Shown here: positions 15,741 to 53,163 of the stretch, one piece after another
Numbering within the stretch: the first letter of the stretch is position 1
Layout: each line of letters begins with the position of its first letter
Origin: Bdellovibrionales bacterium
Lineage (GTDB): Bacteria > Bdellovibrionota > Bdellovibrionia > Bdellovibrionales > UBA1609
DNA length: 64,000 nt
Assembly: GCA_965219095.1 (NCBI GenBank)
Contig: CBDCMT010000001.1
Location: 1,120,001 to 1,184,000 of the forward strand
Reading direction: 5' to 3'
The notes under the pieces: model-generated
What the model was told of the DNA's origin: nothing
The model's database searches: none
The model's input: only the letters and a program-made list of their open reading frames with translations
Made by a program: the position numbers and the translations under genes

Positions 15741-16165
15741 GCTTTGTTAGAGTACCATAAAAGAGAGGCTTAAATATTTAACTTAATAACCCGAGTTTCA
15801 ACTTTTTTCAGGGCTAAGGTCTAGCTTATATAAAAAAACACCTTTAGACCTTTGTAAGATTTTCTTGAAAAAGCAACTTACAAGGAAAAACAACTTGAGA
15901 ATTATAAAAAAAACATACTAAAGAGGTCTAAGATATTTAATTCTAATTATATCAATTTATGTTCCTGTCGATGATTTTTTAACCCCTCTCGTACAACAAT
16001 CCAGAGCTGATTTTTCAAAACAAAAGGAGTTTTTCTTCTGCTTATCTCCCAGAGAAATCATCACTCTCTCTACTTTTCCAAAGTTTTAGGCTTTAGGAAT
16101 CTTAAAGCCTTCTACCAGTTTATAAGAAGTCTATCTTACAATCTTATTTTCCTAAAATGTTGTCT

Positions 16166-16263
16166 TATACCATTTCCAAAAATTAATTCGACATTCTTTT
16201 AACGCATAGCCTCCTGGCTTTTTAATCAAACTCTGTTAAATTTTTAGAGTGTCTATCAAAAAG
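16166..16263 (+). mobile_element. IS630-A left end joined to inverted IS110 right-end stub
   Basis: ...ttagagtGTctatcaaaaag is the reverse complement of the junction at 51829-51848. Confidence 0.85.
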
Positions 16264-16351
16264 AAAATATAGATGACCAGCCTTTTTTTGAAAAACTGGG
16301 ACTTAAAAACCCTGATTAGAAGAGTTAGACTCATCTAAGAAGTAAGCTCAT

Positions 16352-16395
16352 TGAACTTCCCCCAAAAAAGTGGACAGTTTTTTGGGGGAAGATCA
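16352..16395. mobile_element. 44-bp IS3-like MITE
   Basis: tgaacttcccccaaaaaa-gtggacag-ttttttgggggaagatca, TG...CA ends; second copy at 33898-33941. Confidence 0.75.
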
Positions 16396-17378
16396 CTAGA
16401 AATAAAGGTCAATTTCCTAAAGGTATGAGTGGTCCTCTTCAGTATGGTGTAGGCATTAGAGCTTCCATCATCAATTTCATTATAGTTCAGATGCTGTCTT
16501 TTAGAGCGTGTTGGGGAACATTACATGGGGCTTATAGGTCGAATGATTTCTCCTGCAGTTATGTTGAGATACATTGCTGAATTAGGAGAGTTTCTTAAAA
16601 GTTGGGAAGAGCAGATGAAAGAAAAGATACTTGAATCAGAGGTCATTCATGTTGATGAGACCTCTATGAGGGTTAAGGGTAAAAACTACTGGATTCATAC
16701 TTATAGTTCAGGAGAATTAGTCTTGCAGTTTCTCCACCTTTCAGGTGGAAAGGAAGCCATAAAAGATATTGGTCTCTTGGATAGATATGCAGGAGTGCTT
16801 GTGCATGATTGTTGGAGTCCTTACTTTTGTTATGATAAGATAACTCATGCTTTGTGTGTGGCTCACCTTTTGAGAGAGCTTAAATTTATAGAAGAAAGCA
16901 ATGGATTCAAATGGGCTACAAATCTCAAAAAACTTCTTAAAGAGACTGTGGAGCTAGTTCATAAAAAAGAGTCAAGAGTTCTGACTCAAAAAGAGTACGA
17001 AACTCTTCAGAGAAGGTATAGGAGTATTCTTACAAAAGGCTTAAAAGAGCTTCCAGAATTTCCTAAGAAAAATGGCAAGAAAGGACGAATAAAGCATACA
17101 CAAGCTCAAAACCTTTGGCTGCGATTTAAAAAGTATGAAGCAGAAATACTGTGTTTTGCTAAAAGAAAGAACGTAGATCCTACTAATAACAGAGCTGAAA
17201 GAGATCTAAGAATGACTAAAGTGAAAAAGAAAGTGTCAGGGTGTTTCAGAACAGAAGAAATGGCGAAATATTTTTGTCGCATTACCAGCTATGTTAAAAC
17301 AATGAGAAATAGAGGGTATTCTTCTTTAGAAGCCATCTCTATGGCTTTAAATAAAAACTTACGAGAGTGAGCAGTTAC
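16396..17378 (+). mobile_element. IS66-family element, 3' portion (transposase fragment 16525-17370)
   Basis: HVDET, LVHDCW, CVAHLLREL, TNNRAERDLR; right TIR gtgagcagttac. Confidence 0.92.
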
Positions 17379-17380
17379 GT

Positions 17381-18594
17381 TGTAATAGTCGCAACTTAAT
17401 CTGACACGTCTCGAAATGTCAAAGAGATGAAAAGAGGTTACCCTTTTAAATAAACAATACCACCCCAAAGGGTGGAGAAAGGATAACAAAAATGACATAT
17501 CAAGAAAGAATTATAAAATCAAAAGTAGGTCTTTTGCAATTAGCAGAAGAGTTAGGCAATGTATCTCAAGCTTGTAAGGTGATGGGCTTTTCAAGAGATA
17601 CATTTTATCGTTACAAGACACTCAAAGAGGAAGGAGGTTTAGAATCATTAAGAGAGCAAAGTCGTAGAAAGCCTAATTTAAAAAACAGAGTTGATCAAAC
17701 GACAGAAGAGGCTTGTTTAAGGATCGCTATAGAACTTCCTGCCTATGGACAGTTGAGAGCGTCCAATGAGTTAAGGAAAAAAGGAATTTTTATTTCTCCT
17801 GCAGGAGTTAGAGGGGTCTGGCTGAGAAATAATTTAGAGACTTTCAAAAAGCGTTTGAAAGCTTTAGAAAAGAAGTCTGCAGAGGAAGGCTTGGTTTTCA
17901 CAGAGGAGCAGTTACAAGCCCTAGAGAAGAAGAAACAAGAGGATTTAGAGTGCGGAGAGGTAGAGACAGCTCATCCTGGTTATTTAGGCTCACAGGACAC
18001 TTTTTATGTGGGAACTATGAAAGGTGTAGGACGTCTTTATCAACAAACCTTTGTGGACACTTACTCAAAAATTGCTTTCTGTAAGCTCTATAAAACGAAA
18101 ACACCTATTACAGCAGCTGACCTTCTCAATGATAGAGTGTTTCCTTTTTTTGAAGACCATGATGTGCCCCTGCTTCGTATGTTAACAGATAGGGGTACAG
18201 AGTTCTGTGGAGTTCAAGATCGTCACGATTATGAGCTTTATTTGGCTATCAATGATATAGAGCACACAAAAACAAAGGCAAGACATCCTCAAACCAATGG
18301 CATCTGTGAAAGATTTCATAGAACAATTTTAGAGGAGTTTTATCAAGTGGAGTTTAGAAAAAAAGTGTACAAAAGCATAGAAGAGTTGCAGTCTGACCTT
18401 GACTTGTGGCTTGTGAAATATAATGAAAGGAGAACTCATCAGGGAAAAATGTGTTGTGGTCGAACACCTATGGAAACTTTCCTTGACGGAAAACAAAAAG
18501 TAAGGCAAAAGATGATTGAACAGAACGAAAACTGACAGACAGTTTTTTATCAACCCAGAAAGGGTAACTGTCAGATCATATAACGTCTATTACA
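17381..18594 (+). mobile_element. Complete IS481-family element
   Basis: TGT...ACA ends with imperfect TIR; 7-bp TSD gttacgt (17374-17380, 18595-18601). Confidence 0.93.
17492..18535 (+). CDS. IS481-family transposase
   Basis: AEELGNVSQACK HTH; SQDTFYVG, TDRGTEFCG, PQTNGICERFH. Confidence 0.95.
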   Translation: MTYQERIIKSKVGLLQLAEELGNVSQACKVMGFSRDTFYRYKTLKEEGGLESLREQSRRKPNLKNRVDQTTEEACLRIAIELPAYGQLRASNELRKKGIFISPAGVRGVWLRNNLETFKKRLKALEKKSAEEGLVFTEEQLQALEKKKQEDLECGEVETAHPGYLGSQDTFYVGTMKGVGRLYQQTFVDTYSKIAFCKLYKTKTPITAADLLNDRVFPFFEDHDVPLLRMLTDRGTEFCGVQDRHDYELYLAINDIEHTKTKARHPQTNGICERFHRTILEEFYQVEFRKKVYKSIEELQSDLDLWLVKYNERRTHQGKMCCGRTPMETFLDGKQKVRQKMIEQNEN

Positions 18595-18601
18595 GTTACG
18601 T

Positions 18602-19293
18602 TTTATTATTATTTACATTTTTACGTTCTCCATAAGGTTTATATTTTTTCCCAGACTTGAAAACACCTAAAGTTAAAGCTGCAATTCTTCTAGTTGGTAG
18701 CGTTTCTAGCAGTATGTGGTGGTAAATTTTTTTTGATCAATTCTTCATAAAAATCATTAAATTCATTGTTATTTCCTATAACTGAGAGTGCAGCTGTCTT
18801 AAAAACACTTTTCATTTGTGGGCAAAACCTAGACTTCTTAGTTCCATAAGACCTTCCACCACTCATTTTATGTAGCTTTACAAGTCCGCAGTCCACTCCA
18901 CCAGGAATTACGTTTAAATCAGTGAGGCACTACAACCCTATCTTCTTACCTTTCAGAGTTTTTAAATAGGCACGAAGATTCCCAAGATCTGAAATCGTGT
19001 CCATAGTCTTAATATCTTTTGATTTGCCTGTCATCCTTGAAATGGCCATGTTACTTTGTGCCTAATCTACGGCTATATAGTGATCATACATTTTATTTTC
19101 CTCCTTTGTTGGTTGTTCATAAATAAAGTCTTGAAATCCTATTTTACATCTTTTTTTTGCTTTTTCCTTTGAGGCCTTAAAAAGCAGGACAGCTAAAGGG
19201 TTTAGAATTTGTCTCGAAAAGCTCACCTCCTTCTGCAAGTACTTTAGGGTCACTATCATGGCTTAAACCAGTGACCTGTCTTTTTGATTTACC
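18602..19293 (-). pseudogene. IS110/IS1111 remnant with internal deletion and nonsense codon
   Basis: Homologous to 48783-49141 and 51105-51444; MYDHYIAVD followed by TAG; left end joins an IS630-A right TIR (19296-19319). Confidence 0.88.
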
Positions 19294-19448
19294 GTCGAAT
19301 TAATTTCTGTAATTGGTATTACTTGTAGTTTTATAAGAGCTTAGCTTTTGTACTTACTTTTGAAAGCCAGGATTTAATTGTTGTATTATCTCTAGCGACA
19401 TCCTTTCTGGTACTTTTTTATCTGGTACTTTCTTATTTTCCTGTTATA

Positions 19449-31025: not shown

Positions 31026-31336
31026 AATTTGGGTAAATTAATTAAATTAAATTGTGTAACTGATTTTTGTCATTTTAAATTTTAACCTCACTTTTTTACA
31101 CTTATTTTAACCCATCAATCAATTCACACAACAAATAGATATACCTGAAATAAACTTATCTTATGAAAACTTAAACTCACCTTAAAAGAAGTTTTTTTAA
31201 AACCTCCTAACTGAAACTTTTCCTTAAGTCAATTTTAAAATTTTAAATTTGAACATGAAAATGTCGAATTAATTTCTGTAATTGGTATAAACTTTCACAA
31301 AAATACAGGCTTAATCGAAAAAAAGGGGAAACACAC

Positions 31337-31490
31337 CCTTTGAGGCCTTAAAAACCAGGCCAGCTAAAGGGTTTAGAATTTGTCTCGAAAAGCTCACCTC
31401 CTTCTGCAAGTACTTTAGGGTCACTATCATGGCTTAAACCAGTGACCTGTCTTTTTGATTTACCGTTATATGATCTGACAGTTACCCTTT
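31337..31490 (-). mobile_element. IS110 left-end remnant fused to an IS481 right-end fragment
   Basis: Reverse complement of 48783-48911 joined at GT (31465-31466) to the reverse complement of the IS481 terminus. Confidence 0.85.
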
Positions 31491-32256: not shown

Positions 32257-33296
32257 TAGTGCTTCCGCTTAGGTTTTCAGTTTTTTTTGAGTTGAGGTCT
32301 AGTTTTTATTCTAAGGCCTTGATAAAAAATCATTTATTTTTAAAAATAGTTTCATATGTCAGGGTTTCTATCAAAAAAAGAGCGAAAAGATTTACTCTAT
32401 GAACTATCTCTAGAGAAAAATCTTAAATACGTAAAAAGGATTATGACAATTCTCCATTTAGATAAAGGTGAGTTGTGTAAAGATATTTCCCGTTTTCTTT
32501 TCATTGATGAGGGCACGATAAGAGCCTGTAGAAATCGTTATAACAAAGGCGGGATAGAGTGTTTAATCAACGACAATTACAATCCTAAAAGGTCCTTTTT
32601 AACTAAGAAAGAGGAGAAAATGCTTTTAAAGGAATTAGAGAAAAGAATTTTTCCATCATCACAGGCCCTTATTCAGTTCATTGAGGAGAATTTTGGTGTT
32701 ACGTACTTTAACAAGTGGTGTAATTGATCTTCTCCATCGCCTTGGTTTTTCTTATAAAAAAGCCACAGCGATACCGAGTAAGGTAAAGAAAGAAAAGCAG
32801 GAAAAGTTTGTGCGTAAATACAAGAGAATTAAGAAGAAAGACGGTCCTGTTTACTTTGCTGATTCCACACATCCTGAGTGGGGCCCTACGATTTCATATG
32901 GTTGGATAAGAGAGGGTAAGAAGTTTGAAGTGAAGACCAATTCAGGCTGGAGAAAAAGAGTGAATGTTTGTGAAGCTATTGAGATCAATAGTTTGAAGAC
33001 GATAGTCAGGAGTTATAAGACAGTTAACGAAGTTTTTCTATGTGATATGCTCTATCATATTCATTAAGAAGTATTCCGATGAAAAAGAGATTCATCTTAT
33101 CTTAGATGGGGCCGGATACAATAGATCGAAGTCTGTCAAGAAGTTAGCAAAAGAGTTGAATATAAAACTTGTTTATCTTCCTCCGTACTCACCGAATTTA
33201 AATCCTATAGAAAGGCTTTGGAAGTTTATGAAAAAAGAGGTCACGGCGAATCGATATTATGAAAACTATGACGATTTCAAGGGAAGTTTAAGTCAA
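32257..33296 (+). mobile_element. IS630 type B, 3'-truncated copy
   Basis: Near-identical to the 19449 copy, with the same two frameshifts. Confidence 0.9.
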
Positions 33297-33427
33297 TAAA
33301 AAATGGAAAGGAAATGCAGGAAGTTTTTTCTTAGGTGATTAGAATATTCGTGACCGTATGCAAAAAAAAATTTTTATATTTTTTGTAAATGGAGAAGTGT
33401 TTTTTCTTGACATACTTTTTGATAGAT
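33297..33427 (+). mobile_element. IS110 right-end remnant
   Basis: Matches 51712-51841 and is followed by the same actctaaa flank. Confidence 0.88.
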
Positions 33428-33436
33428 ACTCTAAAG

Positions 33437-33897
33437 TGTAATAGTCGCAACTTAATCTGACACGTCTCGAAATGTCAAAGAGATGAAAAGAGGTTACCCT
33501 TTTAAATAAACAATACCACCCCAAAGGGTGGAGAAAGGATAACAAAAATGACATATCAAGAAAGAATTATAAAATCAAAAGTAGGTCTTTTGCAATTAGC
33601 AGAAGAGTTAGGCAATGTATCTCAAGCTTGTAAGGTGATGGGCTTTTCAAGAGATACATTTTATCGTTACAAGACACTCAAAGAGGAAGGAGGTTTAGAA
33701 TCATTAAGAGAGCAAAGTCGTAGAAAGCCTAATTTAAAAAACAGAGTTGATCAAACGACAGAAGAGGCTTGTTTAAGGATCGCTATAGAACTTCCTGCCT
33801 ATGGACAGTTGAGAGCGTCCAATGAGTTAAGGAAAAAAGGAATTTTTATTTCTCCTGCAGGAGTTAGAGGGGTCTGGCTGAGAAATAATTTAGAGAC
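33437..33897 (+). mobile_element. IS481 5' fragment
   Basis: Matches the 17381 copy; cut by the 44-bp MITE. Confidence 0.92.
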
Positions 33898-33941
33898 TGA
33901 TCTTCCCCCAAAAAAGTGGACAGTTTTTTGGGGGAAGATCA
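33898..33941. mobile_element. 44-bp IS3-like MITE (copy 2)
   Basis: tgatcttcccccaaaaaa-gtggacag-ttttttgggggaagatca. Confidence 0.75.
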
Positions 33942-34529
33942 CCACTCATACCTTTAGGAAATTGACCTTTATTTCTAGCTCCACATGAGGGACAATCCTT
34001 AACTTCAGAAGTTACAGTATGGGTTTGAATTTCATAAAAAATATCAATCTTTTTACGCTTTTCAAGGCTTTTTACCTCTGCTGTCTTTAAACACATCCCA
34101 CACTGAGAACACTCTGAGGGAGAGACAGTCTCCTCACTGTTTGTATCTTTACTGTTATAAAGTCTAGAGCCCCTTTTTCTGACTCCCACTAGCTTTCTTA
34201 TTACGATTCCCTTGACGACTAAAATCTTGCGAAGGAGGAAGACCGCTGTTGCTGGAATTTTTTCGAACCTGTTTTTCTAAAAGCACAACAATCAGAATGT
34301 TCACAACCTTAAAGAGAGATTCAAAAACCACAGAAATCTCAGTAGGCACAGAACCTTTCTTTGCAAGCTTATCAAAGTCACTTCTTATATTTTCAATCTC
34401 ATTTCTGATGGAGGTCTTATTTATTGTCATTTGAAAAGAGTATTTAAAAGAAAATCTGTAAGAGCAAGACTTTTATCTTAAAACAGGTCTAAAGTTAGGG
34501 ATAACTGAACAATGTAGGTGAGCAGTTAC
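33942..34529 (-). mobile_element. IS66 5' fragment
   Basis: Reverse complement of 37609-38195 including left TIR gtaactgctcacc. Confidence 0.92.
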
Positions 34530-34626
34530 TAATTTTCTCCCTTTTAAGGATTTAAACCTTTTCTTTAAGCTTTAAAAAAAAAAAAATATTTTTGTAACTG
34601 CTTGAAATAATTAGCTTTTTTCATCA

Positions 34627-36535: not shown

Positions 36536-36968
36536 TTATGGTTTGGGCTCACAAGTAATCTGTTCTCTATAAACTTTTATTAATGTTTCATTTAAAGTAT
36601 TTAAAACATAAACCTTCTTATCCCAAGAACCTACGACAATTTTATTATCATTCATTATAGCAGGAAAGGAATAAACCAAGCCACCTGTTTTAAAAGAAGC
36701 TACTTTAAATAATTCATTACCTGAAAGCTCTAAAACATAAACCTTGAAATCATCAGAGCCTATGACAATTTTATCATCATCCATTATAGCAGGAGAGGAA
36801 CGAACCAAGCCATCTGTTCTAAAAGAAGCTACTTTAACTAACTTCTTACCCCTAAGCTCTAAAGCATAAACATTTTCATCATCAGAACCTATGACAATTG
36901 TTCCATTATTCATTATGGCAGGAGAGGAGCGAACCGCATCACCTGTTCTAAAAGAAGCTACTTTAACT
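36536..36968 (-). pseudogene. PQQ/BamB-like beta-propeller repeat protein, 3' fragment
   Basis: ~41-aa repeats KVASFKTG..VRSSPAIM.D..IVIGS.D..VYVLEL; 5' end cut by an IS66 right-end fragment at 36969. Confidence 0.8.
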
Positions 36969-37043
36969 GTAACTGCTTACTCTCGTCACCACAGGCACAC
37001 AGTAGTGATAGGTTATAAAAGAGTGGTTGGGTTGGGTGTCTTC

Positions 37044-42106: not shown

Positions 42107-45100
42107 TTGAAAAATTTTAAAAAAAAGTATCTTGTTGCTTTATCCTCTATGTTGGCTCATCAAGCCTTTGCAGGTTTTATGTCTTTAAACCCTCTGTTCC
42201 ATCCCTTAGCTAATGATTTAGTTTGCAACGAAGAAACAAAATTTCTTTGCAAAAAAATAGGCTTAAAGAAAGAAGAAGTTATTGATACAGAAAAACTTCT
42301 CAGCCAATCAGACTTCAAAATAGACTACTCCCTTTTTAATCCTAAGGAGAGTGATATTTGGAAAAATAGAAAGCCTATTAAAATTTCTAATCCTCGTTTA
42401 ATAGAAGATCATAAGAAGGTTAAATTTAGAGAAGTGTCTCCTGTGGGATCTGGCATGTTTCGATTTCTTATAGAAGATAAAAAGGGACAGCAATATCGTT
42501 TTATTATTGGAAGGAAGTCTCACAATATTTTATTACGGCGGGCCCTTCTAAGAAAGCTGGGATATATCGTTCCTGATTCCAGTCACGTTAAAAAAGTGTC
42601 CGTTGAATTCAAAAACTCTGTAGCATGGAGGACTTTTCTAAAAAACATGTCCTACGGTGTAGGAACTTCTAACTTATCTAGATGGGTGACTAATATAGAT
42701 AAAAAATCTCTGGAAGATCATCCAGACAAAACAAAATGGGTTATCAGAAAAGAAGCCTCATATGAGAAGAACACATTAATTCTACAAGATGTTATTGTTA
42801 CAACATCTTGGGATCAACTGTACGATTTATCTATCGTCTTCATTAGTTCTGTTATGAAGAACAGAAGAGTTTTCAATTCTCTTCTGATTCCTTATGCTTT
42901 AGTTGATGTACCAGAAAGTTTCAATAAATTCAATTGGAATATGGGAAAACAAACCAACGAACAAATTTTTTTTAAAAGTGATTTCTTAAAAGACTTTCGT
43001 ATGGGATATGAAGATGGGAAATGGATAGCAAAAAAAATACTTGATCTTGAAAGAAAAGATTTTGAAGACATTGTTAAAGAAGCTGCACTTCCTCAACCTG
43101 TATCTCTTCTAGCTATAGAAAAACTCATTTCTAGGAGGAATTCTTTGTGCCTTATTTTCTTTCCTAATAAACAGTCATGTATTATGGAAATTGATTTTAA
43201 AAAAACAGATCCGCAACATCCTCATCTTTTGAAAAACGGTCGCCTCCTCTTAGATACTAAAAATGGTGATCCTAAAGATTCAGACCATTGGTGGGAGGGT
43301 TATGGCTCTCGATTTTCTTATGGCCCTGATGAAGCTCCTCTTTCACGAAAAGAAATGACAGCCTTTTTTACATCTCAAATCTTTAGTAATCTTATCTCTA
43401 ATTTTGTAAGTGATATCAACAAAGATTTTCTCCCTAACTCAGATAACAGTATTCAAAGGAAAGCCTATAAAGAGTATACTGAAGATTATCAAAACCAAAT
43501 CATCGAAAGAATCATGGAGGGTAAAGAACCTAAAAATAGAATCACCTCTCTTAAAAATTGGTCAAAAGATATTCTTTATGTTCGCCTAAATGCTTCTCGA
43601 GATATTATTTTTGGAGGTTATTTAGGAACAAGCCACAACATTCAATTAGTTCACTCTTTTGGATGGGCTGTAGATGCAGGTTGGTTTTTAGGATCTCATG
43701 GTGGTCCTAGGGATCTCTCTCTTTCTGGAAGATCTGGCTTAGCTTACTCAGAAAATTACACGCAAGTCACCCCCTCTATAAGTATAAAAGAGGCCAATAA
43801 GACTCCTTATAAAAACATCTTTGTTCATTTTATGATGAAAAAAGTAAGTGAGAAATTAAACAAGGTAAATGATCTGAAAAAAAAGAAAGAGATGGATTTT
43901 CAAAACAATCCTCAATCTACGAAAAAAATAAAAGAGGAGGAAGAAAAATTAAGAAACGAATTAAGTGAAATTTTAAATGAGCATTTAAAGGTGGGAGAAT
44001 CTTTTATCATTACAAGAAATATAGGACCTTTTGCAGCTTTAAATGCCATTTTATCTATCAGCCCTCATACAAAATTATCTTTGAATTTAAGAAATCAAAT
44101 TACAGAGTTAGAAAGAGTTCATATTCTTAGAAAAGACCAAAATACAGTTCACATTTATTCCTCTAATGCTACTCGTTTTAATTGGGGCTTCACTCTACAA
44201 TTAAGAAAATGGATACCTATTTTTACTTATAAAAATAGAAAGGCCAGATCTGTTCTGAAGCCTGTAAATGTAAAATTCCTTTCTTTAAATATACTTCCAG
44301 ACATCAAAAAAAACCCTGAATTTGAACAAAATTCTATAGTTTTGAAGAACTTTTTTTCTGAACCTTTAAGCACAGAAAATATTTCAGATTTCATTGATGC
44401 GAAAGATTATGTTGAACTATCTAGCCATTTTACAGAAAGTTTCAAAGATTTTAAATTTTTATGGCAATCCTCATCCACTTTAGAGCAAAATAATATTATT
44501 AAAGTAAAAGAATACAAAAATAAGGAGCCTTTTCAAAAAAAATTCATTTGGGCATCTTCAGGTAAAAGGACTGGAGTTAATTATCAAAGTGTATTTCTTG
44601 ATATCTTAAACCATATTATAGAAGAAAATTTAGGCCTTGAAGACATTAATGTGGGATTAACAAACACAAATCGACCTTCAGAAACTATTTTTGGCCATTC
44701 TACAGTCCAGCAGTCTTTCTATGAGGGAGTGATCGAAGAAGAAACACAAAACGTAAAAGAAGCTTTTGTCAACGTTTCTTATCGCTGGAAAGGCTGGGCT
44801 CTTTCTAAAGAAAAGCTGGAAGCATTAATACGCAAACTCAATTCCTTTCAAAAATCCTTACAGGTCAAAACAAACCTTCCACCTCTTCCTATTAGTTCTT
44901 TTTCTCTAACAAATCAGCTTCAACTTTATTCTATCTTTTATAATATTTATATCTATGAAAAAGGAATCCAAAATATAGCTAATTGGGGAAAGCCTTTGGA
45001 CTCACATAAATTAGATAAAAAAAATTATGAAAAAAGAAGATCCGAAAATCTTTACAAACTTTTTGAAATGTATGGAGGTTTTCATAATGTAAATTGTGAT

Positions 45101-45496
45101 CATACTGAATCTTTTAGTATGGGAGGAGATTGCTACTTGTATGCTAAACGACGTCTCATCGATGCTTTCAAAAAGGCTCAAGATCTTTACCAAAAAACTA
45201 TAAAAACAAGCCAATATAAAAAAATAGCAAGAACTACATTAAATATGACTCTGGCACTTGAGCCGATAAATTTTGATGGTCTGATCAATGCAATAGGAGG
45301 AAGTACTCATATTTACACAAAAACAGGTGCTTTTGGCTATAGAGAAGGGGATGAAGGCAATCACAAACCTATTTTTGGAAATTCGAAAGGAAAGCTCCCA
45401 GAACAAAAAAATTTAGGTCCTATTCAACACACTCGTAATAGATTAGGAATTTCAGAAGGCGAGCTTTATCTTTATTGGCTTTTAAGGAGGCTTTAA
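42107..45496 (+). CDS. Large secreted hypothetical protein (1129 aa)
   Basis: Signal peptide ending AFA; long intact ORF; stop overlaps the start of the S8 protease. Confidence 0.85.
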   Translation: MKNFKKKYLVALSSMLAHQAFAGFMSLNPLFHPLANDLVCNEETKFLCKKIGLKKEEVIDTEKLLSQSDFKIDYSLFNPKESDIWKNRKPIKISNPRLIEDHKKVKFREVSPVGSGMFRFLIEDKKGQQYRFIIGRKSHNILLRRALLRKLGYIVPDSSHVKKVSVEFKNSVAWRTFLKNMSYGVGTSNLSRWVTNIDKKSLEDHPDKTKWVIRKEASYEKNTLILQDVIVTTSWDQLYDLSIVFISSVMKNRRVFNSLLIPYALVDVPESFNKFNWNMGKQTNEQIFFKSDFLKDFRMGYEDGKWIAKKILDLERKDFEDIVKEAALPQPVSLLAIEKLISRRNSLCLIFFPNKQSCIMEIDFKKTDPQHPHLLKNGRLLLDTKNGDPKDSDHWWEGYGSRFSYGPDEAPLSRKEMTAFFTSQIFSNLISNFVSDINKDFLPNSDNSIQRKAYKEYTEDYQNQIIERIMEGKEPKNRITSLKNWSKDILYVRLNASRDIIFGGYLGTSHNIQLVHSFGWAVDAGWFLGSHGGPRDLSLSGRSGLAYSENYTQVTPSISIKEANKTPYKNIFVHFMMKKVSEKLNKVNDLKKKKEMDFQNNPQSTKKIKEEEEKLRNELSEILNEHLKVGESFIITRNIGPFAALNAILSISPHTKLSLNLRNQITELERVHILRKDQNTVHIYSSNATRFNWGFTLQLRKWIPIFTYKNRKARSVLKPVNVKFLSLNILPDIKKNPEFEQNSIVLKNFFSEPLSTENISDFIDAKDYVELSSHFTESFKDFKFLWQSSSTLEQNNIIKVKEYKNKEPFQKKFIWASSGKRTGVNYQSVFLDILNHIIEENLGLEDINVGLTNTNRPSETIFGHSTVQQSFYEGVIEEETQNVKEAFVNVSYRWKGWALSKEKLEALIRKLNSFQKSLQVKTNLPPLPISSFSLTNQLQLYSIFYNIYIYEKGIQNIANWGKPLDSHKLDKKNYEKRRSENLYKLFEMYGGFHNVNCDHTESFSMGGDCYLYAKRRLIDAFKKAQDLYQKTIKTSQYKKIARTTLNMTLALEPINFDGLINAIGGSTHIYTKTGAFGYREGDEGNHKPIFGNSKGKLPEQKNLGPIQHTRNRLGISEGELYLYWLLRRL

Positions 45497-48400
45497 TGAA
45501 ACAAATGTTAATTTTTATTTTATGTTTTTTTTTTCTCTCTCTTCCTGCAACCATAAAACCTCATAGTAATTTTAACCCATACTTCAATGATCCTTTTTTT
45601 GTTTACCAATGGGGGCTTTCAGCTCAAAATCAAATTTTTATCAAAGATTTAACTGACATTAAATCAAAAAAAATTCATATTTCCCCAAAAGCTTCTATTG
45701 GTTTTTTTGAACCCCATAACCAGCCACTCACAGCTAAAATGAAAAAGGAAGTGGTGGTTGCTGTCATAGATTCTGGTTTAGATATATCTCATAAAGATTT
45801 AAAAGGAACTATATCTTTAAGCTCAGATTGTAACGAACTCCACCTCCCTCCAACTGGAAAAGCCCACGACATCAAAGACAAGGATAAGAATGGTTACAGG
45901 GGGGATTGTATGGGATGGAACTTTTCCGTTAAAGATGGAAACAACAAAGTTTACGATGATAAGGGACATGGAACTCACGTATCTAGCATCATATCAGCAA
46001 CTTCTAATAATGATGAAGGAATTGCAAGCCTCTCTGCACAAATTAAAATTCTACCCATTAAAATTTTTCGCAACACAACAGAAAAAGAGAAATCTACATA
46101 TAGAGAAGAAAAAGAAAACTATAGTATTGATTTTTCAGAAAACATCATCAAAAAAGCCATAGATTATGCAGTTTCTAAAAATGTTGATGTTATTAATATG
46201 AGTTTTGGTTGGCCTTTGGTGATTCAACATCCTTCTTTAACAGAATCCCTTCAAAAAGCTCTTGATAAAAATATTACAATTGTTGCTGCTGCGGGAAACA
46301 GCCACCACAATGCCTTTATTTTACCATGTGCTATTGAGGGAGTTTTATGCGTGGGTGCTTCAAATGGACTAGGAAAATTAGCAGAATTTTCTAATTATGG
46401 AGGCCATGTGGATCTCTTAGCTCCAGGAGAAGAAATTTTTGGAGCCCTTCCTCTATCACAAGCCACATATGAAAGAACTTTTTCTATTCCAGGCTATGGT
46501 CCTTTGACGGGAACAAGCCAAGCAGCACCTTGGGTTTCATCTGCTGTTGCTTTTTTAAAAGGAATTTTCCCTCAAATTCAAAATGATGAAATTAAAGCCA
46601 GATTATTTCTAAGTTCCTCTCATTTTGACGAACACAAAAAAACTCTTCATGGACTTTTTAATTTAAAAAAAGCAATTGAAGTCAAAAAAAACCCCGTTAT
46701 AAGACCTATATTTAAAAGTCAGAAGGAAGTGGAATTGATAAATGGTCAAGCTAAAATAAAATTTAAATTAAAAAATTACTGGGAGACGACAAAAAATTCT
46801 ATCAAGATTTCTGTTTCAACAATAGATCCCCCTATTCAAAAGTATAGTTTTACGTATCCACAAGGTTTAAAAAACAAAGAGATCAAAACGATTTCCTTTA
46901 ATCTTTCTCTTCCCTATGAATGGGTACATAGCAAGATTTCTCTTCTTGTCTCCATTCAAGAGGGAGATGGTAAAAAAGAAGATTTTTTTCATGAAGTGGA
47001 TGTTTTTAAAAGCTTTCAACTATTTTCTTCACAAAAAATATCAATCCCAATTAATCATGAAATTCAACTTTTATTAAAAGAACGTTTTAAAAGTAAAAGG
47101 GGCATTACACCTTTCTTTGAAATAGGGAAACCTTCAGGATCTCCTAGTTATTATTTAACCAAAACTGAAGAAGGGGGAACAAAAGTTTTTATTTGGAAAA
47201 AAGGGAGATACGGCCTTGATCTCAAAGAGGTTTTTATTCCTAATCTATTAAATGGACAAGGAACACTATCCCCTTCTCTTATTAAATATGACTTTAATCA
47301 TGACGGGAAAGATGATTATCTTATTAGCGGGCTTTCAAAAAAACATGATGAGTCTAATAAAGATTTTGAACAAACTGTTTTATTTTCTTTTTTCGATCAC
47401 AACCTGGAACCTCTATTTAAAAACATTTCTCATCATTGGAAACAAAAATTTCAAAGAATAGTTTTTAGATGGGAGAATCCTAAAGTGAGATTTTTAACTT
47501 ATTCTTTTGAAGGTGAGAAGATAAGCCTTCCTTTTCTTATAGGAAGAAATTACCCTCCTGAAAAAGATCTTCTTACACATCCAGATGATGCTTTTTTAAA
47601 TAGGAATAGAAATTATATTTTCTATTTACATCCTGTCATTAAAAGAAATTCCCAAGGTAATGAGGAGGTAATTTTAGAAGAAAGGATTCTAGATTCTTAT
47701 CATTTCATGAAAAACTTAAAAGAAAAATTAACTCTACACCAAAAATCAGAGAAAAATATCCCTGAAAATCTAAATGCTGAAAACCCTCTAACTACCTTAC
47801 AGTTTCTTTCTTTGTTTCCTCAAAAAAACAAGGAAGAATTAAAGGGTCTTCTAGCTATAGGGGAGGGGGGAAGCAAAAAATACTACATCATTCACTGGAA
47901 AAGTAAGTTTTTAGAAAATAACTTTAAAGAAGCAGATTATGACATACGCAGCTTAGATTATGGAAATAAAAAATTAGATGGAAACACACTTCAAACTCTC
48001 TTTCGCATTTCTAAAGACAAGGTTCTTCCTTCGGAATCTTATGTCTTTATTCGACATTACAAAGATTTAGAAAAGCCCTCAAGAGTACTCATAAGTGGAT
48101 CAGAGAATAACTCTAAAACTGCTAGTGTGTTTACCCCTTCCTTTAAAAATAAAAGTGATAGGTTGACTTACTTTAAAAAAGCGTATGAAACAGATGAGCA
48201 TTACATTGTTTTTTATGAATCTCAAAATCAAATTATAGCAAAAACTATACCTCTTTCAAAAAAAGACAACTTAGAAAACTTTACAAGAGAAAATAAAGAG
48301 GGAAAAACTTTCTTTAAGCGAGTCATTCGCTCCGCTCTATTTCCAGATGTCTTTTTTAGCGAAAGACTTTCTCCTTTAGTGATTAAGAGAGGGACAGTTT

Positions 48401-48645
48401 TAAAACCAGCTCTATATGTCAATGCATCAGAAATCTACTCTCAAAAAGTTTTCCTTTGGTTCCTTGATGAACACAAGGGAGAATTTTTTGCACCTATAAA
48501 GTACAGCCTTAAAGTTCCTAAAAATTGTCTTAGTTTAAAACCTACTCCTTACGGCGAAGGTGATGAATATAAAGCAGTTTTTATGTGCCAAAGAAAAAAA
48601 GACTCCAACATCTTTTGGACCCTTTATTATTACACTTTTAATTAG
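45496..48645 (+). CDS. Secreted S8 (subtilisin-like) serine peptidase with long C-terminal extension
   Basis: VAVIDSG, HGTHVSS, AAAGN, GTSQAAP; aggagg RBS before ATG 45496. Confidence 0.93.
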   Translation: MKQMLIFILCFFFLSLPATIKPHSNFNPYFNDPFFVYQWGLSAQNQIFIKDLTDIKSKKIHISPKASIGFFEPHNQPLTAKMKKEVVVAVIDSGLDISHKDLKGTISLSSDCNELHLPPTGKAHDIKDKDKNGYRGDCMGWNFSVKDGNNKVYDDKGHGTHVSSIISATSNNDEGIASLSAQIKILPIKIFRNTTEKEKSTYREEKENYSIDFSENIIKKAIDYAVSKNVDVINMSFGWPLVIQHPSLTESLQKALDKNITIVAAAGNSHHNAFILPCAIEGVLCVGASNGLGKLAEFSNYGGHVDLLAPGEEIFGALPLSQATYERTFSIPGYGPLTGTSQAAPWVSSAVAFLKGIFPQIQNDEIKARLFLSSSHFDEHKKTLHGLFNLKKAIEVKKNPVIRPIFKSQKEVELINGQAKIKFKLKNYWETTKNSIKISVSTIDPPIQKYSFTYPQGLKNKEIKTISFNLSLPYEWVHSKISLLVSIQEGDGKKEDFFHEVDVFKSFQLFSSQKISIPINHEIQLLLKERFKSKRGITPFFEIGKPSGSPSYYLTKTEEGGTKVFIWKKGRYGLDLKEVFIPNLLNGQGTLSPSLIKYDFNHDGKDDYLISGLSKKHDESNKDFEQTVLFSFFDHNLEPLFKNISHHWKQKFQRIVFRWENPKVRFLTYSFEGEKISLPFLIGRNYPPEKDLLTHPDDAFLNRNRNYIFYLHPVIKRNSQGNEEVILEERILDSYHFMKNLKEKLTLHQKSEKNIPENLNAENPLTTLQFLSLFPQKNKEELKGLLAIGEGGSKKYYIIHWKSKFLENNFKEADYDIRSLDYGNKKLDGNTLQTLFRISKDKVLPSESYVFIRHYKDLEKPSRVLISGSENNSKTASVFTPSFKNKSDRLTYFKKAYETDEHYIVFYESQNQIIAKTIPLSKKDNLENFTRENKEGKTFFKRVIRSALFPDVFFSERLSPLVIKRGTVLKPALYVNASEIYSQKVFLWFLDEHKGEFFAPIKYSLKVPKNCLSLKPTPYGEGDEYKAVFMCQRKKDSNIFWTLYYYTFN

Positions 48646-49494
48646 GGCATGTCGTCAATTAATCTAACCAAACCATAAAGAAGCTAACATAACTTAAAGC
48701 TAAGAAGTGTTTTCTCTTTTTGATAGACATACCGGGAGACCTTTGAGTGCATATTGATAACAATTACAGAAATTAATTCGACGGTAAATCAAAAAGACAG
48801 GTCACTGGTTTAAGCCATGATAGTGACCCTAAAGTACTTGCAGAAGGAGGTGAGCTTTTCGAGACAAATTCTAAACCCTTTAGCTGGCCTGGTTTTTAAG
48901 GCCTCAAAGGGAAAAGCAAAAAAAAGATGTAAAATAGGATTTCAAGACTTTATTTATAAATAAACCAACAAAGGAGGAAAATAAAATGTATGATCACTAT
49001 ATAGCCGTAGATTGGGCACAAAGTAACATGGCCATTTCAAGGATGACAGGCAAATCAAAAGATATTAAGAAAGACTATGGACACGATTTCAGATCTTGGG
49101 AATCTTCGTGCCTATTTAAAAACTCTGAAAGGTAAGAAGATATTGACTATCGAAGAGACTACAACTTCGATAGTGGTTGTATTCAGAATTAAAGGATAGT
49201 GTTGATGAGTTCATAGTCTGTGATCCTCTTCGGAACAAACTTTTAAGTGAAGGGGCTAAAACTGATAAAATTGATGCTGAAAAACTTGTTTTATTGTTAC
49301 GCTCTGGCCTTTTGAAACCAGTTTTTCACTCAGGTGATGAATTCATTTACCTTCGTAAGATTGTCAGTGGGTATGAAGATGTGGTTAAAAGAGGAGTTCG
49401 TGTTAAAAACCAAAGATCAGCTCTGTTTCGAGCTTCCCATCTTGATGCTAAGAAGCAGACTCAATTAAAACGGGCAGAAGAGATATATTTGTTC

Positions 49495-50954
49495 TAGTGT
49501 TCTGACCAGTAAATTTTTTCACAATTTTCAAGCCTTTAATCCAGGTCATTTTATTAAATTATTTTTATATTAAAAAGAATAAAAGTGAAATGTTTAGAGT
49601 TATACCAATTCCAAAAGTTAATTCTACATTTTCATGTATAAGTTTGGATTTTTACTTCTAGAAATTTATAACTTTTAAGTATGGGTAAAGAGTGTATCAA
49701 ATTCATTGGAAAGATATGATTTTCTAATGTTTATATACAATTTAGTTTACAGGCTCTTACAGGCTCTTACAGGCTCGTCTCATTTTTTATAATGGAACTT
49801 TTCTCTGGCTGATTTTCTTGAAAAATTCCATTTTATTATAATCTTCCGTCTGTTCATAATATTCACCCAAGCCTTGGTTCTTTTTCTTAAAGTTTCTATG
49901 TCAGGTATTCTTGATTTTCCTAAACATTGACGAGAGTACATATTGATTGCAATTTCTGCTTGATTTAACCAACTTCCATGACTCGGAGTATAATGAACCT
50001 CAAAGCGAGACCATAGATGCAAACCTCGATCTTTTCCATAAAAATCAGTAAGACTTTTTTTTCTATGAGTGTTCAAATTATCCATAACTAGAACAATCTT
50101 CTTGGAATCAGAATAATGTCTCTCAACAGAAGATAAAAACTTAGCAAAATCCGGACCTGTCCTTCTCTCTGTTACCTTATTCATATAAAAACCTCTCTTA
50201 GGCTCCACAGCACAGAAAACATTTGCTGTACCCTCTCTTTTATACTCATAATCTACTTTTTTTACTTCCGAGGGATGACAACCCGATGGAGGACGAACAT
50301 CATCAAGTAACTGAAGAGGCTTTTCATCAATACACACAACAGGCTTTCCTTTAATCGGAGGCTTCTCATACACTTTCAAAACATCCTCCATCCTCTCTAT
50401 AAATTCATCATTAAGCTCTGGTACACACCAACTCTTCTGTTGCCAAGGTTTTAGATCATGTTCTAAAAGAATAATCCTAACTTTTTCTTTGCTAATAGAG
50501 TCTACAATCTTGTTTTTTTCTGCCCTCTCTTTAATGAGCTCTAAAGTCCATCGATCAAAGCCCTCCGGAGGATCTGAGCAGACTATAGCTATAATCTTTG
50601 ACTTTATGCGATCATCAAACTTTGGAGGTTTTCCAGGACGAGGATCATCTTCAAGAGCTTTTTTCAGCCCAGAATTCTCATAGTTTTTTTGGATGTTGAA
50701 AACAGTTCTAGGAGTTATCTCTAAGTAATCTGCTGTCTCTATGGCAGTTAAATTTTTGTTCCTTAAGTTTAGAACATTGGCTCGATATATGGCTCTTGGA
50801 TTTTTAGACTTCTTTATAATTTTAAGAATTTCTCTCTTATCTTTTGGCTTTAATAAATTTAACATATGAGTATTAAAACATAAAAAAAAAATAAATAAAA
50901 TGACCTGGATTAAAGGCTTGAAAATTATGAAAAAAATTACTGGTCAGAACACTA
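49495..50954 (-). mobile_element. IS630 type C element
   Basis: ~59-bp TIRs gtgttctgaccagtaa...; TA duplication within CTAG. Confidence 0.93.
49780..50865 (-). CDS. IS630-family transposase (intact)
   Basis: PPEGFDRWTL, CIDEKP, DYEYKREG, VMDNLNTH, TPSHGSWLNQAE. Confidence 0.95.
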   Translation of the reverse strand: MLNLLKPKDKREILKIIKKSKNPRAIYRANVLNLRNKNLTAIETADYLEITPRTVFNIQKNYENSGLKKALEDDPRPGKPPKFDDRIKSKIIAIVCSDPPEGFDRWTLELIKERAEKNKIVDSISKEKVRIILLEHDLKPWQQKSWCVPELNDEFIERMEDVLKVYEKPPIKGKPVVCIDEKPLQLLDDVRPPSGCHPSEVKKVDYEYKREGTANVFCAVEPKRGFYMNKVTERRTGPDFAKFLSSVERHYSDSKKIVLVMDNLNTHRKKSLTDFYGKDRGLHLWSRFEVHYTPSHGSWLNQAEIAINMYSRQCLGKSRIPDIETLRKRTKAWVNIMNRRKIIIKWNFSRKSAREKFHYKK

Positions 50955-51498
50955 GAAGGCTTAGATAAAGCTATCAGTTCTTATGGGGAGGAGAAAGCAC
51001 GTTATGAAGCAGAGTTTAAGAGGCTAAGTAAAAAACACAAAGATATTAGAAATCTTAATAGCATTCCAGGAATTGGTTCTATCAAGGCTATCAAGATTGT
51101 AGCCAGGGTTGTAGTGCCTCACCGATTTAAACGTAATTTCTGGTGGAGTGGACTGCGGACTTGTAAAGCTACATAAAATGAGTGGTGGAAGGTCTTATGG
51201 AACTAAGAAGTCTAGATTTTGTCCACAAATGAAAAGTGTTTTTAAGATAGCTGCACTCTCAGTTATAGGAAATAACAATGAATTTAATGATTTTTATGAA
51301 GAATTGATCAAAAAAAATTTACCACCACACACTGCTAGAAACGCTACCAACTAGAAGAATTGCAGCTTTAACTTTAGGTGTTTTCAAGTCTGGGAAAAAA
51401 TATAAACCTTATGGAGAACGTAAAAATGTAAATAATAATAAAACAACCTTATAAAATCATCTGTTTAAAGTTTCTTGCATAGTAAGTAACAATACAAA

Positions 51499-51713
51499 TA
51501 ATGACTTTATGAGGTGAGGATAGATAGCTTAATAAAAATGATATTTATAAAAAATTCATTTCGACGAATAGCACATCCTCTATTCCTAAAATTTACTATA
51601 ATCTAAGGTTTTAAATCTTTGGAATAAATTCATGATTTAAAACTAAAAAAGGTTCATATAGACGAATAATAGGAATATGTTTGTTTTACAATGTGTAAAG
51701 GAAGAGTCATTAA
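51499..51713 (+). ncRNA. Putative bridge/seek RNA of the IS1111-type element
   Basis: Closing stem taatgact/agtcatta; hairpins gaggat/atcctc and tattccta/taggaata, each carrying TTCAT-[N6]-GAATA with N6 matching the target flank and the element right end. Confidence 0.75.
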
Positions 51714-51841
51714 AAAATGGAAAGGAAATGCAGGAAGTTTTTTCTTAGGTGATTAAAATATTCGTGACCGTATGCAAAAAAAATTTTTTATATTTTTTGT
51801 AAATGGAGAAGTGTTTTTTCTTGACATACTTTTTGATAGAC

Positions 51842-51925
51842 ACTCTAAAAATTTAACAGAGTTTGATTAAAAAGCCAGAGGCTATGCGTTAAAAGAATGT
51901 CGAATTAATTTTTGGAAATGGTATA
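51842..51925 (-). mobile_element. IS630-A left end flanking the IS110
   Basis: Reverse complement of 16166-16250. Confidence 0.88.
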
Positions 51926-52120
51926 ATTATAGGCTTTTACTTGAAATGAAAATCAATTACACAATTTGATTGATAGACTTAGGATCTGATTTACAGAATC
52001 TTTACAAACTCTAAGCGGGCTTCCTTATGTTGGCTACCCGCTTTATTTTTTTCTTTAAATCTGTTCTTATGATCACACTACTACTTTTTGAACTCTATAC
52101 ATACAATTTTACTTCGCATA

Positions 52121-52855
52121 TTACTCAGAAAAAAGAGAGCTTGCAAGAGTCATAACTTGAGAAGAAGTAACGCCTAACTCACTAGCAACTTCTCTCCATA
52201 AAGTGACAAGCTTTTTTGTATCTGATGATGCAGATATAATTTCTGAATAACTCACTCCCAACATGTTTCTGGTCACCTCATCAACTTCATCTTTTGTCCA
52301 AGTATCCTTGTCTGTATTAGAAAATTGAATAGCTAAAGTTGCTACCTCTTGAGCTTTTTGTTGAGAAAAACCAAATTCTGTTACTAATCGATTTTGAACG
52401 CTATTTATTTTTAACCTCTCCACATGAGCATTTAACTGACCTAAATCATGATTAACAGTTTTTGCAATTTTAAACCGCACACCTGTTAAAGGATCTTCAA
52501 ACAAGCTTTCATTTCCATAGACATCTCTAAGATCATGATAGAAGTAGTCGCTGTATCTTCTAAGATAGTTTTCTAAATCTTCCCCTACATTGTAATAATC
52601 AAGATCATAGGCTGTGTATTCATCTAAATCACCGTCATAAACCACAATGTAATCATATTGACGAGTGTTCACCTTTACAAGATCTACGTCATAACCTAAA
52701 AGACGGTTCAACCTTGTAACAAATGCTTCCGCTAACTCTCTGTGAGTGTAATGTCCCCCGGTAACTGACTCGCTACCACTACCTCCTCCACATGCTGTTA
52801 GTAGCAATGATGCTACAGTGACAGCAAAAATAGTTTTTATTATACTTTTTTTCAT
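52121..52855 (-). CDS. Hypothetical lipoprotein
   Basis: Lipobox LTAC; ggagg RBS; hairpin agcggg...cccgct near 52014-52042 downstream. Confidence 0.8.
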   Translation of the reverse strand: MKKSIIKTIFAVTVASLLLTACGGGSGSESVTGGHYTHRELAEAFVTRLNRLLGYDVDLVKVNTRQYDYIVVYDGDLDEYTAYDLDYYNVGEDLENYLRRYSDYFYHDLRDVYGNESLFEDPLTGVRFKIAKTVNHDLGQLNAHVERLKINSVQNRLVTEFGFSQQKAQEVATLAIQFSNTDKDTWTKDEVDEVTRNMLGVSYSEIISASSDTKKLVTLWREVASELGVTSSQVMTLASSLFSE

Positions 52856-53131
52856 TTATCCTCCTTTTTTATTGTTTTTTTGTTTTTATTTTCCTTTGTA
52901 GCTTTTAATTTATTTAATTTATTTAATTTATTAATAAAAGTAAAAACTTTAAAAACTTATCGAAGCTAGTAATAGCTAATCACGATTGAAAGGTCAAGCT
53001 TAAATGGCATTATGTGCTATAAACATTTTGTTTCTAATATAACAGGCTTTTAGAGCTTACTTTAGCGTAAATGAGTGTGAGGAGAAAAGCTGTTTTTAAA
53101 GAAACAATTGTTTCTTTAAAAACAGAATAAG

Positions 53132-53163
53132 AAAAAACCCAAACCTTAAGGTTTGGGTTTTTT
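53132..53163 (-). terminator. Rho-independent terminator after groEL
   Basis: aaaaaacccaaacc-ttaa-ggtttgggtttttt. Confidence 0.8.

Follow-up and report, generated by a model that had tools for sequence, protein, structure and literature searches.

A decayed IS630/IS110 composite-type locus in a Bdellovibrionales genome, probably derived from RNA-guided targeting among insertion sequences

Why do the same hybrid junctions between an IS630-family and an IS110-family insertion sequence (IS) recur within one genome? The window, i.e. the whole 64,000-nucleotide stretch analysed here (contig CBDCMT010000001.1, positions 1,120,001 to 1,184,000), belongs to a Bdellovibrionales bacterium whose genome (G000; 3.11 Mb, 34% G+C) is assembled in two contigs, C1 and C2, and is dense with insertion sequences. 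The locus under study, 16166–19319, resembles the structure at 48757–51925 (copy 1) in the opposite orientation. Both hold an IS110-family element, IS110-A, between the ends of an IS630-family element, IS630-A. IS110-A is defined by the element at 48781–51841, and its reference copy is C2:601327-602982 (1656 positions). The initial annotation had proposed that the dead IS110 and its noncoding RNA spread as cargo of a non-autonomous unit bounded by IS630 ends. Our analysis favors a different origin: the locus is probably a decayed and recombined composite-type pile that resulted from RNA-guided targeting among insertion sequences. The junctions recur because two predicted guide alleles of IS110-A spell the edge of the IS630-A right terminal inverted repeat (TIR) and the site at the IS630-A start codon.

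PF01548 scores above cut-off at 15 of 17 IS110-A matches, and the element is 83–85% identical to whole proteins carrying PF01548 and PF02371. Its ends have a 9-bp sub-terminal inverted repeat on both sides and short terminal extensions, share a one-base core with the target, and lack a target duplication. Among its relatives, sampled as 80 metagenome loci of which 64 have a whole gene, about 400 bases of the right end are conserved. Two variable stretches therein match the flanks of their own element. The first does so at 4.45 of 6 positions (40 loci; 2.1 after shuffling, with a maximum of 2.8 in 2000 shuffles), and the second at 7.2 of 8 (41 loci; 3.8 after shuffling, with a maximum of 4.4 in 2000 shuffles). 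The donor guides co-vary with the element ends at 39/39 and 44/44 loci scored. The two flank-match figures comprise 28 distinct guides each, and as the loci are related, we attach no formal probability to them. A predicted two-hairpin fold holds on nine selected sequences, and 11 of 34 pairs have two-sided changes, the structure being derived from the same alignment. An Rfam search of the window gave 0 matches. Judged by these sequence features, IS110-A is an IS1111-group element with a predicted guide RNA downstream, located in copy 1 at:

51510–51670, plus strand: predicted bridge/seek-type RNA of IS110-A, allele 1; right-target guide 51533–51540, left-target guide 51559–51566, donor guide 51658–51664

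The circle junction of IS110-A reads TTGACA, 17 bases, and then a weak −10 element. We read 21 copies of the RNA region in G000; apart from a few damaged ones, they fall into three guide alleles. For allele 2, the 14-base target is matched exactly at 25 places in the genome, and all 25 are the start-codon (left) site of IS630-A. At one mismatch, the allele-1 target has 56 matches, 47 of which are the inner edge of the IS630-A right TIR. Within IS630-A, the two sites are oriented alike. Two copies have allele 3, which fits loosely to a conserved site in the RNA of a second IS110-family element, IS110-B, and to an IS481 end, both of which hold IS110-A copies. The link is weak, and the third allele may aim at the IS110-B RNA stretch. 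The guide in cis and the flank often disagree among IS110-A copies, as expected under trans action.

Compared with an intact relative, every IS110-A recombinase copy is broken, and IS110-A is not autonomous. Frame breaks near codons 234 and 301 occur in both window copies, which bears out the shared 3′ frameshift lesions noted at the outset, and 3′ breaks are present in all copies covering them. A frameshift at codon 61 is found in 17 of 19 copies, which lie at the right TIR (8), at IS481 (3), at the left site (1), at other sites (2), or have no left end (3). Hence, while inner junctions and lesions are common to the copies as anticipated, the lesions also occur at non-IS630 sites, indeed at every target class, and do not mark a cargo lineage. 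The variant patterns among IS110-A copies are mosaic, which points to conversion between copies and blurs arguments for as well as against cargo copying.

IS630-A is 1404–1414 bp long with 25-bp TIRs. Its 354-aa product scores 210 bits against NF033545 (cut-off 100), so that both transposase and terminal inverted repeats agree with the IS630 family. The family rule is a TA target duplication. IS630-A departs from it in duplicating 3 bp, TWA (e.g. L010:99-1503), with matching flanks in 44 of 51 full-length copies; a literature search for a 3-bp IS630 duplication found none. An intact IS630-A transposase, for which the initial annotation had suggested a search, does exist elsewhere in the genome: the frame is unbroken over 357–368 codons in 18 of the 51 full-length copies. 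In many copies the transposase is split over two frames. Two internally deleted copies of 353 bp lie in different flanks, which suggests that they moved in trans. In the most numerous IS630-A lineage, the allele-2 target carries three additional bases, by which the GTG start becomes ATG (e.g. C1:265969-267380). IS110-A occupies none of about 61 such ATG-type left ends, against 20 of 47 of the GTG type, and a right-end variant with one change is occupied in 0 of 38 cases. The unhit ATG-type lineage may represent escape or later expansion.

We then counted the junctions. Out of 41 IS110-A left ends, 25 lie at the IS630-A right TIR (24 distinct loci), 4 at the left site, 4 at the IS481 end, 2 in the IS110-B RNA, and 6 elsewhere. 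C1:222852 and C2:2394690 were counted as one locus; they have the same nested element with identical flanks on both contigs, reflecting either segmental duplication or assembly overlap. This pair excepted, the outer flanks of the copies differ, which rules out segmental duplication as their source. Right-TIR::IS110-A junctions face outward at 24 distinct loci and inward at 7, and IS110-A::left-end junctions face outward 21 times and inward 4 times. At each end, outward junctions outnumber inward ones by 17, which implies that right-TIR::IS110-A::left-end units of this composite type were once numerous (about 17). Seven of the ten units whose two ends are still adjacent lack the IS630-A interior (two complete, four decayed, one minimal). 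Simple IS110-A insertions in otherwise whole IS630-A, the finding that the initial annotation had set against its own proposal, occur at each site (three at the right TIR, one at the left site), and one IS630-A is hit at both (C2:1421796-1423889). The interior-less units have matching 3-bp flanks in 4 of 7 cases (chance about 0.43), against the 44 of 51 for whole IS630-A. The outer flanks thus differ as predicted, but the duplication to be expected is TWA instead of TA, and its frequency around the units is at chance level. No rejoinable flanks were found around interior-less units, whose two sides are unrelated where they fall within repeats, and an empty right-TIR/left-end mini element that could serve as IS110 target has 0 copies in G000. 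Over 800 bp, the complete composite at C2:1748054 shows no difference from the IS110-A copy C2:919971, which lies at a non-IS630 site and whose IS110 end is precise. An 89-bp minimal derivative (C2:492428-492516; C1:62782) arose by recombination of the left inverted repeat of IS110-A with an identical 9-mer of the IS630-A left end.

The locus itself is composed of the following pieces, in window coordinates:

15776–16167, plus strand: IS982-type element, 5′ part; forms the left outer flank and ends with the TTA target (PF13612 is found in a further copy of this repeat)
16168–16250, plus strand: IS630-A left end, consisting of the TIR and the leader as far as the transposase start codon (the target of IS110-A allele 2)
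16251–16263, minus strand: IS110-A right end, last 13 bp (sub-terminal inverted repeat and terminal extension)
16262–16351, plus strand: IS110-B left non-coding end, inserted at an AG core of the IS110-A right end and truncated at the 44-bp element
16352–16395, no strand: 44-bp palindromic relic, IS3-like end-to-end, without target duplication; marks the deletion/fusion point
16396–17378, plus strand: IS66, 3′ two thirds (positions 554–1536), inserted in IS110-A at reference 1262
17381–18594, plus strand: IS481, intact, 347-aa transposase, nested in the IS66 right end
18600–19294, minus strand: IS110-A remnant, reference 1–417 (60-bp leader deletion) and 923–1262, without guide RNA
19294–19318, minus strand: complete right TIR of IS630-A, adjoining the IS110-A left end at the allele-1 target

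In the opposite orientation, 16165–16263 is 99% identical to 51926–51829, and 18600–19319 is 97–98% identical to 51444–51105 plus 49142–48757. Hence, the inverted reproduction of both copy-1 junctions holds (97–99% identity). The IS110 right end that had been assigned within 16166–16263 is present, but amounts to 13 bp only (16251–16263). As to the later invaders, the 3′ part of IS66 and the intact IS481 were correctly recognized, whereas the supposed miniature inverted-repeat transposable element (MITE) is the left end of IS110-B (16264–16351). The IS481 insertion in the IS66 end bears a GTTACG(T) duplication. The 44-bp palindrome is a repeat with 14 near-full copies, one of which has a 3-bp duplication; its ends are presumably those of an IS3 element. 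The RNA region of IS110-A (reference about 1330–1490) is absent, as the remnant ends at reference 1262, and the noncoding RNA was therefore not carried along in this copy. The TTA/TTA outer flanks belong to two unrelated repeats, the front of the IS982-type element on the left and the middle of another repeat on the right (TTA at 19319–19321). This rules out a single IS982 target site, and the TTA match is coincidental. The continuation of the IS982 copy lies 426 kb away, next to the right-TIR::IS110-A arm of another locus (C2:1562748). Over 696 aligned bases, the two window copies have 12 differences, and they are not mutual closest relatives; the right arm has its IS66 insertion point and 5′ haplotype in common with C2:919970, not with copy 1. 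The order of the pieces is colinear with a composite after one large deletion.

The 88 bp at 16264–16351 are the leader of IS110-B, and other copies run on into a reading frame. This frame is 69% identical over 58 aa to a whole IS110 protein (P0122; PF01548 and PF02371), and relatives of IS110-A and IS110-B have 26% protein identity. Profile searches on IS110-B fragments returned no family, and a pairwise comparison with an IS110-A relative gave no match, while the homolog search succeeded. A long inverted repeat is found at both IS110-B ends; the DEDD recombinase and sub-terminal inverted repeats agree with the IS1111 group. The right ends of IS110-B are followed by the remainder of the IS110-A right end, which indicates that IS110-B inserted into the latter and rules out that 16254–16351 is wholly IS110-B with flipped ends. 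IS110-B is present in 5 of the 21 IS110-A::left-end junctions. All 8 bases of its right-target guide agree with the IS110-A right end, at the position where the guides of relatives match their flanks. Of 30 relative loci, 24 gave a guide, and the 12 distinct guides match flanks at 5.75 of 7 positions, versus 3.37 after shuffling (0 of 3000 shuffles). Within G000, 13 of 28 IS110-B right ends match the guide at 6 or more of 8 bases, as compared with 1.4% of random sites. The left-target guide is A-rich and matches at about 6 of 8; with two mismatches, which were needed, the 15-base target has 116 matches, including 29 IS110-A ends. At C2:601327-602982 and C2:1720525, IS110-A is inserted where the IS110-B guide RNA is most strongly conserved.

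Two further structures in the window show IS110-A at IS630-A ends:

48758–51923, plus strand: complete composite, right TIR :: dead IS110-A (with IS630-B inside, 49494–50955) :: IS630-A left end
33291–33436, plus strand: IS110-A right end, followed by the initial bases of the IS630-A left-end site; cut by IS481

The composite has mismatched flanks, TGA and TAA. The junction reported to reappear at 33421–33435 does recur there, at about 33417–33436, where the IS110-A right end meets the IS630-A left end. In 33291–34532, the IS110-A right end is followed by IS481, the 44-bp relic, and IS66. At 31288–31466, an IS110-A left end in an IS481 terminus is cut by an IS630-A right end. Immediately left of copy 1 lies a short repeat with an IS110-A-like right end (48643–48730; five copies), a possible IS110-derived miniature. 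Copy 1 is flanked by a subtilase gene and a small predicted lipoprotein gene (42107–52855). In six relatives these genes lie within 4–7 kb of each other, never directly adjacent. The genes between them in two relatives, which we take to be exbB/exbD-like and sulfatase-like, are found elsewhere in G000. This gene order would fit a breakpoint; the relatives are other genera, and the comparison is not decisive. A DNA search of 20 relatives for the copy-1 flank gave a single weak match of 41 bp. Self-comparison of the window also revealed tandem and palindromic repeats at 36602–36980, 53090–53163, and 60713–60918.

We propose the following course of events. A now lost recombinase and guides acting in trans would have placed dead IS110-A copies, on their own ends, at both IS630-A sites. 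Two copies of the same direction, whether within a single IS630-A or at separate loci, could then have recombined with loss of the IS630-A interior, giving right-TIR::IS110-A::left-end units many times. At the present locus, such a unit, or two such arms, would have taken up IS66, IS481, and IS110-B. A deletion at the 44-bp relic would have removed everything from IS110-B base 88 to IS66 base 553, including the body of IS110-B, the RNA of IS110-A, and the 5′ third of IS66, and at least one crossover with another locus would have swapped one outer flank. Trans action of enzyme and RNA has been demonstrated for other elements (PMC11187229). Partial-match recombination, which a preprint describes for IS621 (bioRxiv 10.64898/2026.08.31.748434), offers by analogy a possible second route to hybrid junctions.

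Copying by the IS630-A transposase, with a few right-TIR::IS110-A::left-end units (or an IS630-A disabled at its start codon) as non-autonomous cargo that was later split and its flanks shuffled, is unlikely as the general source of the locus, yet it can account for a subset of units alongside the course proposed above. The initial annotation was right in that composite units are real and once were numerous, and they have much of what a cassette needs: both TIRs stay whole after IS110-A insertion, the units lack a transposase of their own, 18 intact transposase frames are available elsewhere, and several copies with equal inner junctions have different outer flanks, although these junctions are guide-programmed. 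The true partner of the left arm is itself a right-TIR::IS110-A arm (C2:1562748), and the 353-bp IS630-A derivatives are suggestive of movement in trans. The balanced excess of outward junctions fits as well, but is to be expected equally if a cassette was copied, if an element hit at both sites collapsed, or if loci underwent crossover. Further evidence speaks against copying as cargo. The occupied left ends carry both guide alleles (four and three copies), the right-TIR arms fall into several lesion groups, each also found at other targets, and neither rejoinable empty sites with a matched duplication nor passenger lesions private to the cassette were observed, the flank match of the units being below that of whole IS630-A.

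The two arms may also never have formed one unit. If a left end with IS110-A and IS110-B was fused to an unrelated IS66/IS481/IS110-A/right-TIR arm at the 44-bp relic by IS3-type recombination, the composite look would be incidental; we regard this as a possibility of some substance, though not the favored one. The outer flanks are unrelated, the relic lacks a duplication here as in 13 of its 14 copies, and the right arm resembles C2:919970 rather than copy 1. However, the pieces are colinear and oriented as expected from a single deletion within one composite, and a crossover in the IS110-A 5′ part with the C2:1562748 arm explains the flank exchange equally well. That the locus is an assembly chimera of repeats is very improbable. 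It does consist of repeats alone, and public short-read contigs break at nearly every junction so that none spans it; those contigs do not contradict it, the assembly has just two contigs, every type of junction is found again, with precise ends, at many loci whose flanks differ, and locus-specific variants are present.

Several observations weigh against an origin by RNA-guided targeting. A rare left-end allele is found in 10 of 18 occupied ends. Among the free intact ends it occurs in 1 of 85 (GTG type, 0 of 26; ATG type, 1 of 59), a confinement that cargo copying would produce. Likewise, left ends with an intact site are occupied in 15 of 15 cases of the A-allele lineage and in 4 of 31 of the G-allele lineage, so that independent insertion would require saturation of an old lineage. 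The lesions could have spread across flank classes by gene conversion among IS110-A copies. The allele-3 target has 0 matches at one mismatch at its presumed sites. Finally, no intact recombinase gene of either IS110-A or IS110-B was found in G000, and we can only infer a source acting in trans.

A broader picture of RNA-programmed conflict between insertion sequences is conceivable, but we consider it doubtful. IS110-A would have been re-aimed in place at the IS630-A right TIR, the start codon, and the IS110-B RNA core, IS110-B would be aimed at the IS110-A end, and the IS630-A lineage with three extra target bases would have escaped, while double aiming would build IS630-bounded cassettes that the IS630-A transposase then copied. 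Our literature searches turned up no paper in which an IS110-family element targets IS630 ends or a second IS110; as they covered few subscription papers, this is weak evidence of novelty. Nor did we find in print a composite route in which two guide alleles target the two ends of a single IS, or an untouched lineage such as that of IS630-A with three extra target bases. For annotation, the locus illustrates a trap: identical recurring junctions in IS-rich genomes can stem from programmed RNA guides rather than cassette copying. Alleles that differ only in the guide within one genome also provide natural material on guide re-aiming. The same material bears on a possible trans action of dead copies and guides, and on whether RNA-guided elements inactivate each other or favor target variants that escape them.

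That IS1111 elements are aimed at transposon ends and are naturally re-aimed is already known. IS4321 and IS5075 interrupt the terminal repeat that serves as their target. IS110-A resembles IS1111-group elements that target the terminal repeat of another mobile element, and differs in that its target is an IS630-family IS with two sites. Insertion at the inner edge leaves the 25-bp TIR whole, so that hitch-hiking is still possible, and insertion at the second site destroys the transposase start. Non-autonomous cassettes bounded by IS ends, such as MITEs and mobile insertion cassettes, are a further parallel. The units described here likewise have two whole IS630 TIRs around a passenger and an intact cognate transposase elsewhere; unlike in those cassettes, the flanks show no insertion of the unit in any testable case, and the lesions are not private. 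ISEc11, ISXne4, and ISPa11 are IS1111-group elements with a right-end seekRNA or bridge RNA (PMC11187229, PMC11208160). IS110-A agrees with them in the DEDD recombinase, the sub-terminal inverted repeats, and the long right end with two target guides and donor guides, and also in the lack of target duplication, natural reprogramming, and mini-elements moved by enzyme and RNA in trans, a movement that we infer here. In contrast to these three, three guide alleles of one element coexist in G000 and are aimed at other insertion sequences, all copies are dead, and a second IS110-family element is aimed at the end of the first. In Pseudomonas putida, non-autonomous modules are spread in trans by an IS110-family transposase (ISPpu9/ssr9; PMC12288879). 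The spread in trans proposed here is alike, whereas in our case a dead element is its own passenger and is directed at IS ends rather than repetitive extragenic palindromic (REP) sequences.

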